A program made the translations under genes and the position numbers. From the NCBI GenBank assembly GCA_902785275.1, contig CACZYB010000001.1, positions 32,001-96,000 of the forward strand: 64,000 bases of DNA. Direction: 5' to 3'. The notes beneath the pieces were generated by a model. It was not told where the DNA came from. It saw nothing but the letters and a program-made list of their open reading frames with translations, and ran no database searches. This DNA is from an uncultured Pseudomonadota bacterium (GTDB lineage: Bacteria > Pseudomonadota > Alphaproteobacteria > Rs-D84 > CACZYB01). Shown piece by piece: positions 3,108-55,389 of the stretch; the stretch's first letter is position 1; the number at the start of each line of letters is the position of its first letter.

Positions 3108-4779
3108 TATATTTTTCGTTTAGTTCAGTAACTTTTTCAGGTGTTATTTTTGTAAATACACTTGCAGGAACTTCGAAATTGTGTCCTTTTACAATAGTAT
3201 TCATTTCTGCTTCTACATCATTTATCCAATCGCCAGAAGTATTAAGTGATGATAAAATCTTTTCCACAGTTTCCGGAATAACAGGTCTTGCAAGGATAAG
3301 GAAAATTCTCATTAAATTCATTGCAAATGCCAAAATTTCACCTGATTTTTCTGTATCAGTTTTAAATACTGTCCATGGTGCCATTTCATCAATATAGGTA
3401 TTTCCCAAAACCCAAATTGCACGAAGTTCAGCCATTGCCTTTCTAAACTCCATTTCAGAAAGATATTTTGTGTATGAGGAAATCTTTGAAGAAAGTTCTG
3501 CTTTCAAAGCTTGTTCCTTTTCACCATTTGCAGGATTATGCTGTAAAGTTGTTCCAATTTTTGAAGAATAGAATTTCAAAACACGAAGAACAAAATTACC
3601 CAAAACATCATTCAAATCTTTGTTAATTTCTTCGGCAAATCTTTCAAATGTAAAATCGGTATCATCAGTTTCCGGAGCATTTTTGATAAGCCAATATCTC
3701 CAGTAATCTGCTGGGAATTCGGCGATTGCACTGTCTGCAAAAATACCACGATTTGCGGATTTAGAAAACTTTCCTCCGTTGAAATTAAGGTAACTTAATC
3801 CCTTTAAAATATCCACTTTTTTATAGTCTGAATTTGCACCAATAAGTGTTGCAGGAAACATAATAGAGTGGAATGGTACATTATCCTTTCCCATAAACTC
3901 AACATATTTTTCATCCTTTGCACCGCATGATTCAAGCCACCAATTTTTATATCCATCACCAAGAAGTTCTTTTGTAATTGAGATATAACCAATCGGTGCA
4001 TCAAACCAAACATAAAAAACTTTATCCTTCATATCAGGAAATGTATCCAAAGGTACAGGAATACCCCACTTTAAATCACGAGTAATACATCTATCACTTA
4101 AACCTTCATCAAGCCATTTATTCGCAATTCCAACAGTAAGCTTGTTCCAATTTCTTGTATTAACCCACTCACGAACTTTATCACTTAATTTTGAAAGTTT
4201 AAGGTAAAGGTGTTTTGTCTTTCTTACTTCAAGATTTGTACTTCCACTTACAGCAGAATGTGCATCAATCAAATCCTTTGGATCCAAAACTTTGGTACAG
4301 CTTTCACATTGGTCGCCACGTGCATTTGTCGCACCACAATATGGGCAAGTACCAACAATATATCTATCTGGCAAGAACATATCATCATCAATAGAAAATA
4401 CTTGTTCAACTTCTCGTTCTTCGATATATCCATTTTGTGCAAGTTCACGTGCAATCTGTTGTGAAAGTTCTGTATTTTCGTTTGAAGAAGTTCTTCCAAA
4501 ATAATCGAATGAAAGATTAAATTTTTTGTAAATATCTTTGTGAAGATTATGATATTTTGTTGTATACTCCAAAACATCGATACCTTCCTTTTTAGCACCA
4601 AGTTCGGATGGAGTACCGTGTTCATCGGTTCCTCCAATATACAATGTTTCGTTACCAATTAAACGATTGAAACGTGCATAAACATCACTTGGAAGAAGAC
4701 ATCCAGCCAAATGTCCCAAATGTGGAAGTCCATTAACATAAGGAAGTGCACAAGTAATAAGAATTTTCTCTTTTTTCAT
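3094..4779 (-). CDS. metG: Methionine--tRNA ligase
   Basis: ALPYVNGLPHLGH (HIGH), CPYC/CESC zinc knuckle, YVWFDA, KFSKS. Confidence 0.97.
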   Translation of the reverse strand: MKKEKILITCALPYVNGLPHLGHLAGCLLPSDVYARFNRLIGNETLYIGGTDEHGTPSELGAKKEGIDVLEYTTKYHNLHKDIYKKFNLSFDYFGRTSSNENTELSQQIARELAQNGYIEEREVEQVFSIDDDMFLPDRYIVGTCPYCGATNARGDQCESCTKVLDPKDLIDAHSAVSGSTNLEVRKTKHLYLKLSKLSDKVREWVNTRNWNKLTVGIANKWLDEGLSDRCITRDLKWGIPVPLDTFPDMKDKVFYVWFDAPIGYISITKELLGDGYKNWWLESCGAKDEKYVEFMGKDNVPFHSIMFPATLIGANSDYKKVDILKGLSYLNFNGGKFSKSANRGIFADSAIAEFPADYWRYWLIKNAPETDDTDFTFERFAEEINKDLNDVLGNFVLRVLKFYSSKIGTTLQHNPANGEKEQALKAELSSKISSYTKYLSEMEFRKAMAELRAIWVLGNTYIDEMAPWTVFKTDTEKSGEILAFAMNLMRIFLILARPVIPETVEKILSSLNTSGDWINDVEAEMNTIVKGHNFEVPASVFTKITPEKVTELNEKYNAKK

Positions 4780-50559: not shown

Positions 50560-50589
50560 ATTTGATTTAAAAATTAACTATAAAAAATT

Positions 50590-50617
50590 AAGCCCCCGTT
50601 TCCGAGGGCTTTTTTTG
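50590..50617 (+). terminator. rpoD terminator
   Basis: AAGCCCCCG-loop-CGAGGGCTT followed by a T tract. Confidence 0.75.
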
Positions 50618-50636
50618 AACATATCACAAAGAATTT

Positions 50637-51899
50637 TTACAATGCTTTCTCACACTTTTCGGCCATATCACTATCTTTTTTAGCTTTAGATATCTGTACA
50701 GCGGAAAGTGTTGTCGAAGTTGCCGAAGTACCAAGAGTTACACCAGCCAAAATATTTGACGCAGTATTCAAATTTTTTTCCTTCTTTTTACCTGCTTCAG
50801 TATTGTCATTACGAACACTGTCTTTGTTTGCCATAAATGAAGTAACAGTACCCGCACCCGCAGTCATTGTACCAATACCAGAAACAATACTATTTGCTGT
50901 GGCAAGGTTTTTAAGTGATTTAATATTTCCTTCATCATAACCTGTACATACAGAAAGTATATTATTTGCACTTACAACCAAAGTATCAGTTGCTTCAACT
51001 TCCTCCGCCTCAGCAGTTGCTTTAGCCAAACGAAGTTCAGACAATGCGCTATTACAGCTAGACATTTTTTCTGCAAGCTTGGTTGCACTAAGTGTCGCAC
51101 CAATCGATGTTCCTGTAGATACAGCAGATGTCAAAGTTGCACCAGCCATCAAACCAGTTCTAACATGCCCCAAAGTCTTTGATGTCTTTTCATCCTTGGC
51201 AATCTCTGCCCTTAATGCTTCTGCATCCTTATCCAAATCAGACAAAGCAGAGGCCACAGACTTCTTTAAATTTTCTTCACTACTTGTATCCAAAGAAATA
51301 TCTTTAGGTGTCAAAAGGTTAAGTTCAGCTTCTTTTTCCTCAATCTTTTTATCTTTGTTTGCCTTAACTAATCCAACAGCTAAAGCACCACCAGAAACAA
51401 GAGTTCCTAAACCAGAAGATACAGTTGTTGCAACACTCAAACCAAATATTGTATCAAGGTTTGATTTAATACCTGAACATTCATTTCTTACATTATCAAG
51501 TTTTGATGAAAGGCTTTCTTTTGCCTTTTTCAAAGATTCGTTTTTCTTTTCTTCCTCTTTTTTCTTCATATTTGCAATAAGATCGTTATTTGCCTGAAGT
51601 TCATCTCTTACAACAGCCCTTACCGCATCAACATCATTTGTTACACTGTTATCAATAATTTTTGTTTCAACAACAGGTGTACTTGTAACCACAGGTTCAG
51701 AAGCAACAACTGCTTTTTTCTCCTCAACTATTGCCTCAACATCCTTAACATCGACACTTGTTTTCTTTGACATTTTTTTCACTGCTGAAACTCTTTTCTT
51801 ATTTGATCCAGCACGCTTTTTTGATGGTTTTGAATACGCAATCGCAGATTCAAGTGAAATTGCCAATACCAAAGTTAATACAGAAACTTTTTTAAACAT
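50637..51899 (-). CDS. Exported protein with duplicated Gly/Ala/Thr-rich hydrophobic hairpins
   Basis: Signal peptide, basic patch, coiled coil, four small-residue hydrophobic helices. Confidence 0.78.
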   Translation of the reverse strand: MFKKVSVLTLVLAISLESAIAYSKPSKKRAGSNKKRVSAVKKMSKKTSVDVKDVEAIVEEKKAVVASEPVVTSTPVVETKIIDNSVTNDVDAVRAVVRDELQANNDLIANMKKKEEEKKNESLKKAKESLSSKLDNVRNECSGIKSNLDTIFGLSVATTVSSGLGTLVSGGALAVGLVKANKDKKIEEKEAELNLLTPKDISLDTSSEENLKKSVASALSDLDKDAEALRAEIAKDEKTSKTLGHVRTGLMAGATLTSAVSTGTSIGATLSATKLAEKMSSCNSALSELRLAKATAEAEEVEATDTLVVSANNILSVCTGYDEGNIKSLKNLATANSIVSGIGTMTAGAGTVTSFMANKDSVRNDNTEAGKKKEKNLNTASNILAGVTLGTSATSTTLSAVQISKAKKDSDMAEKCEKAL

Positions 51900-51908
51900 T
51901 TTTATCTC

Positions 51909-52736
51909 CTATTTTCCTGCTCTTGCTTTTATATAACTGTTGTTATCATAAAGATTTGTGATACAACTCTTAATCCATTGTTCATTTATTCTGTCCTTCA
52001 CGGTCGGATCATAAGCGGATAACTTATTAACTATATAAGCAAACTTTCTGTTATAATCGAAACTTGAAGAAGAAAGTAATTCTGCTAAATCAGATTCTCT
52101 ATTAGATAATTTTCTATACCATATAGCCGAATTATCTCTCGCTTTATTTGTTAAAAAATCACCATTATAACCATCTTCTGTTAATGGAATTTTCAATTCA
52201 TTATATAAGTTTCTTACATATCTTAAATCCAAATAAATCATAATTTCACCATTATAAATTTCGTCATAGAACCAATCTGCACAATCAGAAGAAACTACTG
52301 TACTTATACCAACACACTTCTTTGCCATTCTACTTATTTCACCAATAGAACTGTCCTCACAGTCAGGAATAGAATTACAATTTGCATCCTTTGGAAAATA
52401 ACCTTTCAATGCATCACAAAGCTGCATATATTCAGAATACAAAGTACTTTGATTTAATTCATTAATTACAAGTCTATATGATTGTCTTTTTTCTTCATCA
52501 TCTGGATTATAGTTTTTCATAGAACTCATTAATAAATTTTGCAATTCTGATTTTCCAAGTTGTGAACATTTTACTTTATCTTCATCCTTTACAACACCAG
52601 GACACATTTCTTGCAATGTTGACAATGAAACATTTCTTAAATCATCTAAACTTATATTTTCATTTGCAGCCTTAACATTAAAACCTAAACAACAAAAAAT
52701 AAAACTTAAACTTATAAAAATTTTATTTATTTTCAT
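51909..52736 (-). CDS. Exported Cys-containing hypothetical protein
   Basis: AGGAGGAG RBS, signal peptide ending VKA. Confidence 0.72.
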   Translation of the reverse strand: MKINKIFISLSFIFCCLGFNVKAANENISLDDLRNVSLSTLQEMCPGVVKDEDKVKCSQLGKSELQNLLMSSMKNYNPDDEEKRQSYRLVINELNQSTLYSEYMQLCDALKGYFPKDANCNSIPDCEDSSIGEISRMAKKCVGISTVVSSDCADWFYDEIYNGEIMIYLDLRYVRNLYNELKIPLTEDGYNGDFLTNKARDNSAIWYRKLSNRESDLAELLSSSSFDYNRKFAYIVNKLSAYDPTVKDRINEQWIKSCITNLYDNNSYIKARAGK

Positions 52737-52917
52737 AATTTATCTCTCCTCCTTCTACATCAAATTAAATCAAAAGGAATAACTATTCCAACTTAACTTT
52801 TCTAAATATATCATAATTCGCAAACAAAAGCAATAAATTCTCAAAACACAAATAAAAAAACACACTATCAAATCATTCAATAGTGTAAAATTTCAAGAAC
52901 AAACTCATACATAAAAT

Positions 52918-54525
52918 TTATTTTTCACAATCAAAAATTACATCCAAATTTTGATTGTAAAGTTTTGTATCTGTTTTTGTAAGTCCCAACATTGTATGGA
53001 ACAAATTATCATGAGAAATATTTTTCCATACCTTATTTTTCAAACAATTTAAACTAACTCCTGTATTTTTCAACATACTATCAGAAAACCACATGATAAA
53101 CGGAACTGTTTTTTGCTCTTTCGGAGCAATTCTATAAGGCAAACCATGCAAATAAATTCCACCTTCACCCAAACTTTCACCATGATCAGAAACATACAAA
53201 AGACTTGTTTCATAATTTTTATATTGCTTCAATTTTTCAATTACTTTTGATACAAAATAATCTGTATACAAAATAGTATTATCGTAAGTATTTACCAATT
53301 CTTCCTCAGAACAATTTTGTATATTAATAGTATCACAAGCAGGTTTGAATTTTTCAAATTCCTTTGAATACCTTTTATAATACGATGGTCCGTGTGATCC
53401 CATAGTATGCAAAACAATCATTGTATTTTTATCTGCATTCTTAAGATTATTTTCCAAATAAGATATCAACGCATTATCACGACAAAAATCGCCAAAGCAA
53501 TCTTCGCTATTTCCTATGCTAACAATATTATAGCTTTCCACCCTATTACATACTTTTTTACAACCATCATCATTTTCATACCAAACAACATTCCATCCAG
53601 CCTTTTTCACTATATCCAAAAGATTTTCTTCATACCCAGAATAAGCTATATCAAAATCACTTCTTTTCTTTGCTGAAAACATACATGGCACAGACAAAGC
53701 TGTAGCCGTACCACATGATGTTACATCAGGAACCGCAACAATATTTGCTTCATTTTTCATCAATGGATTTGTTTCTTTTTTATATCCATATAATGAAAAG
53801 TTTTGAGCCCTTGCTGTCTCCCCAACAACCAAAACAACTATATGAACATTTTTATCTTTTATTTTAGATTTCACATTATCATCAAGTATAATAAACTTCT
53901 TTGGCGTCTTCAAAGATTTATTTATATATTTCAAAGTATTCACAACATAATTTAATGTATTATACTGGGCTTTTATTTCACTGTTATTTCTTCCAAATGG
54001 AACCAAAAATTTTCCAAACAAAAGTAAATAAATAATGATTAAAAATATCGATATTCCAGACATACACAATCTTTTTATTACCTCTTGCTTAAATGAATAA
54101 AAAGTTATTTTCAACTTAGCTACAAATATCGATGGAACTATACCAAAAATCATTACATTAATGATAAGAGGTAATGAAATCAAATCTAATGCCTCTCTCG
54201 TATTTGTCTCAAAAACATTTCTTATCATACTATAATCTATATAAACACCCATCTTAAGCATCATATAGTTAGTAGCACTTGATAAAATCAAAATAAAATA
54301 GCTAAGTGGTTTTATAACAGACTTCAGTAAAATTAAATTTAAAAAAAGATATATTGGCAAAGGTACTATAAATATTAAAAAAGCCACGCATAAAAATTGC
54401 ATTACTCCTGAAATTTGGAAATTCAAAAACAATGTTTTAAAAAAAGATATATTCAAAACAAAACTTAAATATAATGATAAAAAGAATATATATTTATTAC
54501 TTGAAATTTTTAAATTCTTAAACAT
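52918..54525 (-). CDS. eptA: Lipid A phosphoethanolamine transferase (EptA/MCR family)
   Basis: Five N-terminal TMs, FETNTREA, VGETARA, SCGTATALSVPCMFS (catalytic Thr), HTMGSHGP, YDNTILYTD, SDHGESLGE. Confidence 0.93.
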   Translation of the reverse strand: MFKNLKISSNKYIFFLSLYLSFVLNISFFKTLFLNFQISGVMQFLCVAFLIFIVPLPIYLFLNLILLKSVIKPLSYFILILSSATNYMMLKMGVYIDYSMIRNVFETNTREALDLISLPLIINVMIFGIVPSIFVAKLKITFYSFKQEVIKRLCMSGISIFLIIIYLLLFGKFLVPFGRNNSEIKAQYNTLNYVVNTLKYINKSLKTPKKFIILDDNVKSKIKDKNVHIVVLVVGETARAQNFSLYGYKKETNPLMKNEANIVAVPDVTSCGTATALSVPCMFSAKKRSDFDIAYSGYEENLLDIVKKAGWNVVWYENDDGCKKVCNRVESYNIVSIGNSEDCFGDFCRDNALISYLENNLKNADKNTMIVLHTMGSHGPSYYKRYSKEFEKFKPACDTINIQNCSEEELVNTYDNTILYTDYFVSKVIEKLKQYKNYETSLLYVSDHGESLGEGGIYLHGLPYRIAPKEQKTVPFIMWFSDSMLKNTGVSLNCLKNKVWKNISHDNLFHTMLGLTKTDTKLYNQNLDVIFDCEK

Positions 54526-54543
54526 TTTAACCTAATTTCACTG

Positions 54544-54569
54544 TATCAAAAACCAACGTCTATTTGATA
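54544..54569. repeat. Left invertase recombination site (IRL)
   Basis: TATCAAAAACC-AA-CGTCTATTTGATA, a pseudo-palindrome. Its core ACCAACGTCTA (54552-54562) is the exact reverse complement of 54660-54670. Confidence 0.85.
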
Positions 54570-54614
54570 GGGTTTTATGTAGATATTGAATATGCTTAAT
54601 TTTCTAAATTTTGA

Positions 54615-54643
54615 TTGACTTTGAGAGTAAATTTTCCTAAGAT
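54615..54643 (+). promoter_or_regulatory. Sigma70 promoter within the invertible segment
   Basis: TTGACT (54615-54620), 17-bp spacer, TAAGAT (54638-54643). Confidence 0.8.
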
Positions 54644-54650
54644 TAAGAAG

Positions 54651-54680
54651 TATTAAATCTAGACGTTGGTCTATTTGATA
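54651..54680. repeat. Right invertase recombination site (IRR)
   Basis: TATTAAATCTAGACG-TT-GGTCTATTTGATA, inverted relative to IRL. Confidence 0.85.
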
Positions 54681-54761
54681 TATCTAATTTTAATAGCAAA
54701 CATTAGGTAAAATCTGATAGTTCTTATGATTGTAAAAACAACAAATTATAGGAGCTAAAAA

Positions 54762-55361
54762 ATGATTTATGGATATACCAGAGTTTCAACAGAATTACAA
54801 AACACAGAAAACCAAAAACACGAAATTCAAACCTTCGCCAAAGCTCAAAAAATCAGTATTGACCGATGGGTGGATGAGGTAATTTCTTCACGAAAATCAT
54901 TAAAAGAAAGACGTCTTGGAAAACTTTTAAAACACCTTAAAAAAGGAGACATTTTAATTGCATCAGAATTATCAAGATTAGGAAGAAATTTGCTTGAAGT
55001 TATGGGGATTTTGCAAAGTTGCCTTGAGAAAGACTGTCAGATTTGGACATTAAAAGAAAACTATAAACTTGGAGCAGATATTCAATCAAAAGTTCTAGCT
55101 TTTGCCTTTTCCTTAGCAGCAGAAATTGAGAGACAGCTTATCTCACAACGTACAAAAGAGTCATTAAAACGACTTAAAGATGAAGGTAAACACCTTGGCC
55201 GACCACACGGATTTAACTACAATAAACTTGATGCAAAGAAAGAAAAAATCAAAGAACTTCTTAATAAACAAGTTTCCAAAGCCGAAATCGCCCGTCTTAT
55301 CGGCTGTTCCTGGCTTACCCTACACAGATACGTAAAGGAAAAAATACTCCCTACAAAATAG
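54762..55361 (+). CDS. Serine recombinase, Mpi-like DNA invertase
   Basis: YGYTRVST (catalytic Ser), ELSRLGRNL, DIQSKVLAFAF, AEIERQLISQRTKE, LGRP, C-terminal HTH. Confidence 0.9.
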   Translation: MIYGYTRVSTELQNTENQKHEIQTFAKAQKISIDRWVDEVISSRKSLKERRLGKLLKHLKKGDILIASELSRLGRNLLEVMGILQSCLEKDCQIWTLKENYKLGADIQSKVLAFAFSLAAEIERQLISQRTKESLKRLKDEGKHLGRPHGFNYNKLDAKKEKIKELLNKQVSKAEIARLIGCSWLTLHRYVKEKILPTK

Positions 55362-55389
55362 TAAGGAGTTTTTTAAATTAAAATGATTT

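Follow-up and report, generated by a model that had tools for sequence, protein, structure and literature searches.

Is the short intergenic stretch between a gene for a lipid A phosphoethanolamine (PEtN) transferase and a divergent gene for a serine DNA invertase, both in the genome of a gut alphaproteobacterium, a promoter that can be turned around? The question is raised by a 64,000-nt piece of genomic DNA, here called the window (G000:C1:32001-96000; positions are window-numbered unless another contig is named), which comes from a genome of 1.05 Mb in 18 contigs with ~32% G+C and 95.7% completeness. We propose that a 109-bp segment upstream of the transferase gene, eptA, is a promoter that can be inverted by the adjacent invertase and/or by a paralog of it, turning eptA ON or OFF, and we put the probability of this reading at roughly 0.78. 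In more general terms, the segment is very probably a real invertible promoter of the kind known from the Mpi invertase of Bacteroides fragilis, with a new cargo.

The two divergent genes are separated by a 236-bp gap (54526-54761; 24.6% G+C). Within it, an 11-bp sequence is repeated exactly in inverted orientation (ACCAACGTCTA at 54552-54562; TAGACGTTGGT at 54660-54670), and each copy lies within a 28-bp pseudo-palindromic site. The central dinucleotides of the two sites, AA (54555-54556) and TT (54666-54667), are in inverted order (Table 1). The sole sigma-70-like promoter of the 109-bp segment between them, TTGACT-17-TAAGAT, points at the invertase gene as assembled, with 118 nt from the end of its -10 hexamer (54643) to the invertase ATG (54762). 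No promoter-like match was found in the 16 nt between the left site and the eptA ATG. When the segment is inverted in silico, the promoter turns to eptA and its -10 hexamer comes to lie 53 nt from the ATG, and the new eptA leader crosses the left site and reaches an AGG a few bases before the start, as a normal leader would. The arrangement has the anatomy of an inverton, that is, inverted repeats flanking a promoter (predicted from consensus and conserved position) beside a gene start. An earlier reading of this DNA, hereafter the original prediction, had described the divergence of the two genes over 236 bp, the exact repeat, a single TTGACT-17-TAAGAT promoter between the sites that faces away from eptA, and the near-palindrome that flipping at AA/TT would yield. 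All of its coordinates hold, the repeat was reproduced, the promoter was found again, and 12 of 13 half-site positions are symmetric in the flipped product. Its view that the locus was assembled with eptA OFF likewise agrees with the geometry expected of an invertible promoter that is directed away from eptA.

Table 1. Features of the proposed switch and of the insertion that carries it (window positions).
Feature	Position	Strand	Basis or remark
Lipid A PEtN transferase gene, eptA-like, 535 aa	52918..54525	-	Pfam, NCBIfam; presumed switch cargo
Mpi-family serine DNA invertase gene, 199 aa	54762..55361	+	Pfam Resolvase, NCBIfam NF009949
Putative left recombination site, 28 bp, TGTATCAAAAACC-AA-CGTCTATTTGATA	54542..54569		Matrix score 31.9 bits; 16 nt from eptA ATG
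Putative right recombination site, 28 bp, TTAAATCTAGACG-TT-GGTCTATTTGATA	54653..54680		Matrix score 32.2 bits
Presumed invertible segment, 109 bp between central dinucleotides	54557..54665		Computed from sites
Sigma-70-like promoter TTGACT-17-TAAGAT, facing invertase gene	54615..54643	+	9/12 consensus matches; position conserved across switches
275-aa protein gene, downstream of eptA	51909..52736	-	Apparent N-terminal signal peptide by eye; no Pfam/NCBIfam match
420-aa surface-protein-like family member	50637..51899	-	No Pfam match
4.8-kb insertion between rpoD and tolB: three cargo genes, switch, invertase	50561..55389		Comparison with G003

Under the proposed mechanism, conservative site-specific recombination at the central AA/TT of the two 28-bp sites would flip the segment, the exact position of the crossover being a predicted one. 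In the assembled state the promoter would face the invertase gene, and eptA, having no promoter of its own, would be OFF. After inversion the promoter would face eptA from a place ~46 nt ahead of the ATG, and the cell would make the transferase, which is the ON state. Transfer of PEtN to lipid A lowers the negative charge of lipid A and the sensitivity to cationic peptides, and from knowledge of the family this transferase would be expected to do the same. The acting enzyme is presumably the adjacent invertase, a paralog on another contig that is 84% identical to it, or both.

The two sites belong to a family that is spread over the genome. The 11-mer occurs seven times against 0.34 expected, always at switch loci, and a 28-bp weight matrix finds nine genomic sites of at least 31.5 bits, which are the same nine from which it was built. 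The best match outside the switch loci reaches 19.8 bits, and reverse-strand readings of the matrix's own sites reach 22.3 bits. The nine sites make up four loci, one in the window (C1) and one each on contigs C5, C12 and C3, and two of the four have no adjoining recombinase gene. At every locus the sites are inverted relative to one another and enclose 109 bp (C1, C12, C3) or 120-160 bp (C5), and each of the four segments has a -35/-10 pair. The central dinucleotide reads AA at C1, C5 and C12; C3 and many relatives have AC, and the related locus L055 has TC. It is identical at both sites in every locus where both were read, which is what a 2-bp staggered crossover needs. Four loci with shared sites amount to a regulon and not to a self-contained unit; the compact two-gene cassette envisaged in the original prediction is contradicted by these loci and by the second invertase. 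With one site family at four loci, the organism probably varies more than one of its surface features through common machinery.

The recombinase encoded beside the switch is covered by Pfam Resolvase over residues 2-143. It also passes the NCBIfam equivalog model for the master DNA invertase Mpi family (NF009949; 276.4 bits against a cut-off of 272), with residues 1-195 aligned to model positions 1-197 of 203, and its earlier description as Mpi-like is upheld, if narrowly. The closest solved structure is Gin (4m6f; E 6.7e-13), with an alignment that runs to residue 189. Near the N-terminus, YTRVSTELQ is paired with Gin's YVRVSTNDQ, and the serine-recombinase motif, whose serine we take to be the catalytic one, is intact. 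A search of the 95.7%-complete genome for a Fis-type HTH_8 protein (PF02954) gave no match, with no search made for an enhancer; in a control search, 7 of 14 reference genomes had a match to the family. With no Fis-type protein found, a Fis/enhancer invertasome in the style of Hin and Gin is unlikely.

Homologous switches are found in both orientations in metagenomes. A metagenome scan with the invertase gave 69 loci, and the upstream regions of 62 of these together with those of four genome loci (66 regions) were compared by all-against-all BLAST with no identity filter; left out were three loci whose upstream sequence was shorter than 150 nt, as well as four matches that were partial or remote (L100, L104-L106). 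The comparison produced seven clusters of near-identical loci, and three of them hold both orientations of the segment with a consistent two-colouring: L041 versus L042 (1:1), L046 versus L047, L048 and L101 (1:3), and the L067 group (7:13 contigs). In the L067 group, a 131-bp segment is 99-100% identical as reverse complement between flanks that are 78-100% (left) and 99% (right) identical. By reading, the -35/-10 pair of the segment in these three clusters is directed either at the invertase gene or at the cargo. The other four clusters (3, 6, 2 and 2 contigs) show one orientation only.

The eptA switch itself is of a type that is collinear at 109 +/- 1 bp, with the -35/-10 pair in the same columns, at C1, C12, C3, G011, L103 and L039, and whose layout is shared by G009 and G013. 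At these eight of the nine loci with this type of segment, the promoter is directed away from the cargo. The ninth, G010:C11 from a congeneric genome, has the segment flipped relative to the invertase-side flank: its bases 1-55 are 94.5% identical, in minus-strand alignment, to the window's invertase-side flank, and the segment and right site align on the plus strand, so that the promoter faces the genes on the opposite side. As far as can be judged from these assemblies, the eptA-type segment exists in both states within the genus, and by analogy we infer inversion at the eptA locus and activity of its promoter. The claim that the switch inverts is thus supported in homologous switches, which occur in both orientations, and not at the eptA locus, which was seen in the assembled orientation only. 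Run X1, a bovine gut metagenome that is probably the source sample (~22x word depth), contains a contig that spans 53800-54785 in the assembled orientation with no differences, and the Logan contigs of runs X2, X3 and X5 hold short or diverged pieces only. Two 'skip' joints in X1 were considered as flipping evidence and rejected; the loose contig ends match sequence at loci C5 and C12. Numerous contigs stop inside a recombination site or the invertase 5' end, or no more than ~50 nt away from one (L038:1, L040:1, G010:C11:1 and others), as would be expected if assembly broke off where orientations are mixed or where the invertase-side flank is repeated.

Several results weigh against an invertible eptA promoter. 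Simple inverted-repeat statistics alone do not reject chance, as 1165 of 5000 mononucleotide shuffles of the gap gave a perfect 11-bp inverted repeat with composition left free; when at least five G/C (the window's repeat has five) and arms at least 20 bp apart were required, none arose in 20000 shuffles. Promoter-like hexamer pairs in the gap DNA are at chance level (4 found versus 3.6 expected), the Mpi model was cleared by only 4 bits, and the transferase falls below the cut-off of the EptA equivalog model NF008619 (521.6 versus 660), which bears on its exact substrate. A weak promoter-like match on the minus strand (54789-54762) faces eptA and could give orientation-independent read-through into it. 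A 109-bp segment is very short for synapsis, an objection that is weakened because the 131-bp segment of the L067 group does invert. The Logan contigs of X1 list no strand-change joint at the eptA locus and show the assembled orientation only; since contigs drop rare variants, the X1 contig neither shows nor excludes a flipped minority. Finally, the bias of eight loci in nine fits an OFF bias, and it also fits a switch that is rarely used or locked.

Of the other explanations, the one that survives best, unlikely as we consider it, accepts the switch as real and takes the invertase gene or general regulation to be its main output, with eptA transcribed in either orientation by read-through or from an unrecognised promoter. 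It can point to the assembled promoter, which enters the invertase gene at the 118-nt distance given above, to the gene's own upstream region, where by reading there is a good -10 (TATGAT) and no good -35, and to human-gut relatives that have TTTACA-17-TATAAT in the same place upstream of the invertase gene. The minus-strand match facing eptA is in its favour as well, but that match is at chance level, and the flip sets the switch promoter at a normal distance from eptA. Moreover, C12 and C3 share the promoter and have no adjoining invertase gene, so the promoter is not there solely to drive an invertase. Under the reading that we prefer, a promoter switch for eptA, the same arrangement suggests that OFF cells make more invertase than ON cells, since the assembled promoter reads into the invertase gene and that gene's own upstream region has no good -35.

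A little less probable again is that the locus is a relic, a former switch fixed with its promoter away from eptA, the gene being silent or decaying on a recently acquired island. The single orientation seen in the X1 contigs, the common facing of eight of the nine loci of this segment type and the absence of the island from the closest relative, G003, would all fit such a history. However, the two sites are on a par in score with the rest of their family (31.9 and 32.2 bits), the 11-bp core repeat has no mismatch, both the invertase and the eptA reading frames are uninterrupted and keep their catalytic motifs, and the genome has a second invertase with the same site family. That the repeats serve instead for autoregulatory binding, for res-like resolution or as termini of a small mobile element is very improbable: resolvase-type serine recombinases do bind site arrays upstream of their own genes, and a direct repeat, GTCTATTTGATA, is also present because each site is pseudo-palindromic, but the non-palindromic central dinucleotides are inverted in order at every locus, two of the four loci have no adjoining recombinase gene, and homologous segments stand between identical flanks as exact reverse complements.

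The presumed cargo of the switch has the Pfam domains EptA_B_N (PF08019) and Sulfatase (PF00884) and scores 591.3 bits on the NCBIfam model for lipid A PEtN transferases (NF028537; cut-off 500). All MCR models (MCR-1 to MCR-13) are below cut-off, the best being an MCR-3-related one (443.4 versus 1075), and judged by these profiles the protein is a generic member of the family and not an MCR allele. Residues 6-534 align with Neisseria EptA (5FGN, the best solved match; E 1.2e-115), and the motifs GET, CGT-x-TA and SDHGES are conserved in this alignment, at Glu240, Thr280 and Asp452/His453 counted along the chain. The identification as a lipid A PEtN transferase, already made in the original prediction, agrees with both the NF028537 match and these aligned motifs. 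We take Glu240 and Asp452/His453 to have metal-binding roles. Thr280 corresponds to the nucleophile described for the Neisseria enzyme (PMC6111236). The substrate and the phenotype of the enzyme are those predicted from its sequence family. A distant PEtN-transferase-like gene, 28% identical to the window's, lies at G000:C6:38429-39865 (-) and may be a housekeeping enzyme; distant paralogs of this kind are present in 4 of 13 genomes of the genus.

The other three switch loci of the genome have different neighbours. At C5, three sites (G000:C5:5430, 5555 and 5588) lie between the gene for the second invertase (195 aa) and a leftward operon. One site faces two, the last pair being 33 bp apart, and two alternative inversions are therefore possible. 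By reading, the promoter, TTGACT-17-TATATT, faces a glycan operon that encodes, in order, a 188-aa invertase paralog, two DUF4422 proteins, a UDP-galactopyranose mutase and a group-1 glycosyltransferase. The paralog (G000:C5:4805-5371, -) is without the RVS catalytic motif and is the first gene behind the switch. Homologs of it (24-37% identity) are in the same position at L046-L048, L101 and the L067 group, and these are human-gut loci found in both orientations. Directly downstream of the C5 invertase gene, at G000:C5:6634-8175 (+), is a gene for a 513-aa large serine recombinase (Resolvase, Recombinase and zinc-ribbon domains) with homologs (31-39% identity) in the same position at several metagenome loci, and the C5 switch region may be on or beside an integrated element.

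The C12 switch (G000:C12:10793-10931; locus L108, ~3794-3932) has two AA/TT sites around 109 bp and no invertase gene nearby. Its promoter, a strong TTGCTT-17-TATAAT with TGA just before it, is directed away from three cargo genes for proteins of 273, 247 and 321 aa with no Pfam family, two of which have signal-peptide-like N-termini by eye. The region on the other side resembles an rRNA operon, also by eye. The C3 switch (G000:C3:36836-36974; locus L109) likewise has two sites around 109 bp. It lies between a tRNA gene and a gene pair, for a 113-aa protein and an outer-membrane-like 334-aa protein, from which its promoter is directed away. Its AC/GT cores differ from those of the AA/TT loci, which would prevent recombination with them.

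In relatives, the unit of invertase and switch adjoins other cargo. This includes glycan operons headed by a motif-less paralog of the 188-aa type, DNA methyltransferase-like genes recognised by eye from conserved motifs (L039:273-1172, -; L042:103-2320, -) and lipoprotein-like genes recognised by eye from open reading frame translations (G011, G001, L103). Such cargo is typical of phase variation. If the methyltransferase label is right, the flipped pair L041/L042 would represent phase-variable restriction-modification or methylation run by the same invertase family. At L094, where the invertase is 59% identical, the site cores are AACG-AA-CGTT and AACG-TT-CGTT. They fit at 10 of 10 positions the presumed Mpi core consensus given in the original prediction, and the window's sites, which that prediction likened to this core and to the Hin hix half-site, do not. 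The Mpi core string had no match in the literature search and is absent from PMC10403206 and PMC4747536; for the hix half-site string there were only unrelated papers among the 10 of 13 matches listed.

The system is best understood beside those already known. The small serine invertases Hin, Gin, Cin and Pin also act on pseudo-palindromic sites of ~26-28 bp with a non-palindromic central dinucleotide that is inverted, and the promoter-flip logic is that of the Hin switch. In contrast to them, this system has its invertase gene outside the segment, a segment of roughly a tenth of the length, several target loci, and a genome in which no Fis-type HTH_8 protein was found. The likeness to Mpi of B. 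fragilis is closer, as the protein passes the Mpi equivalog model and, in both, one invertase family is associated with several dispersed short promoter segments in inverted repeats with surface-structure genes downstream. Mpi is reported to invert 13 regions, including seven polysaccharide promoters (PMC4747536). What differs from the Mpi system is the host, which lies outside Bacteroides, the promoter type (sigma-70, TTGACT/TATAAT), the segment length of only 109 bp, and a cargo that includes a lipid A PEtN transferase. There are also two invertase paralogs, each directly beside a switch, and with this placement the switch promoter can read into the invertase gene.

Phase variation of PEtN transferases is known from eptA (lptA) of pathogenic Neisseria, where the same enzyme family is involved in stochastic ON/OFF decoration of lipid A. 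There the variation comes from a poly-T tract in the coding sequence, as described in PMC6111236, that is, from slipped-strand frameshifting within the open reading frame, whereas here promoter inversion would act on transcription. In gut Bacteroidales, antibiotic-resistance genes are placed behind invertible promoters, which is thought to lower the cost of carriage (PMC8748976). The likeness is a resistance-type gene behind an inverton and the differences are the phylum and the gene class; polymyxin, colistin, phosphoethanolamine and mcr are absent from the main text of that paper. A survey of invertons across phyla names Alphaproteobacteria only in a G+C comparison in its available portion (PMC11602134). 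A literature search for an invertible promoter, inverton or DNA inversion together with a PEtN transferase, polymyxin or lipid A returned no relevant paper, in line with the earlier view that this combination was without prior description. Mpi-type promoter inversion, PEtN phase variation in Neisseria and resistance genes behind invertons are known, and the cargo is new.

Invertible promoters are a main source of surface heterogeneity in gut Bacteroides, and here the Mpi invertase family would run a small regulon in a very different, reduced-genome bacterium of animal and human gut metagenomes. We also offer a broader statement, tentatively and with the odds somewhat against all its parts holding together: that this is the first lipid A charge modification, with a function in polymyxin and cationic-peptide resistance, to be switched by DNA inversion, that it sits on a 4.8-kb acquired block with its own Mpi-type invertase, that one promoter feeds either the invertase (OFF) or eptA (ON), and that the whole belongs, as one of its arms, to a regulon of four loci that varies the surface of a gut alphaproteobacterium with a 1-Mb genome. 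If so, OFF cells would flip readily, and ON cells would hold their state unless the second invertase resets them. A minority of cells would be pre-armed against host cationic peptides or polymyxins, and the cost of constant expression would be avoided. Since eptA would look silent in the majority orientation, this would have a bearing on the persistence of resistance-type genes and on their being overlooked in metagenomes. The many pairs that occur in nature in opposite orientations provide a ready comparative set for the site rules of Mpi-type invertases outside Bacteroides.

As to origin, rpoD and tolB are spaced by ~95 bp in the closest relative, G003 (TolB 92% and RpoD 91% identical), which identifies the region between these genes in the window as an insertion (Table 1). 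The G+C content of eptA (27%) and the 275-aa gene is 27-28%, against 35-36% in rpoD and tolB. Synteny of the invertase with tolB or rpoD was not found in the relatives, and there was no close eptA ortholog in the 13 genomes of the genus that were searched. The best eptA relatives in 41 genomes of the order are 42-45% identical (G015, G016, G018), with no invertase match there, and tblastn found no eptA in the 69 metagenome loci. A species-representative collection contains one relative, of 58% identity (L110), whose upstream region is ordinary, with a tRNA gene and a small open reading frame. The original prediction had expected that the pairing of eptA and switch could be looked for elsewhere, and no other instance was found across the 41 genomes, the 69 metagenome loci and L110.

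Downstream of eptA, the 420-aa protein shares 66% identity with the product of the last gene in the C12 cluster (321 aa) and 51% with a second C12 paralog; the former value points to one surface-protein family behind two switches. An Atlas search with this protein returned hypothetical proteins only, below the 0.9 level. A strong terminator follows its gene at 50611-50590 (-). The 181-bp gap downstream of eptA contains, at 52780-52917 (-), an AT-rich hairpin with a T-run and the motif TTGCTT-17-TATATT, from which it follows that the 275-aa and 420-aa genes may have a promoter of their own and that the switch may control eptA alone. The motif resembles the promoter of the C12 switch.

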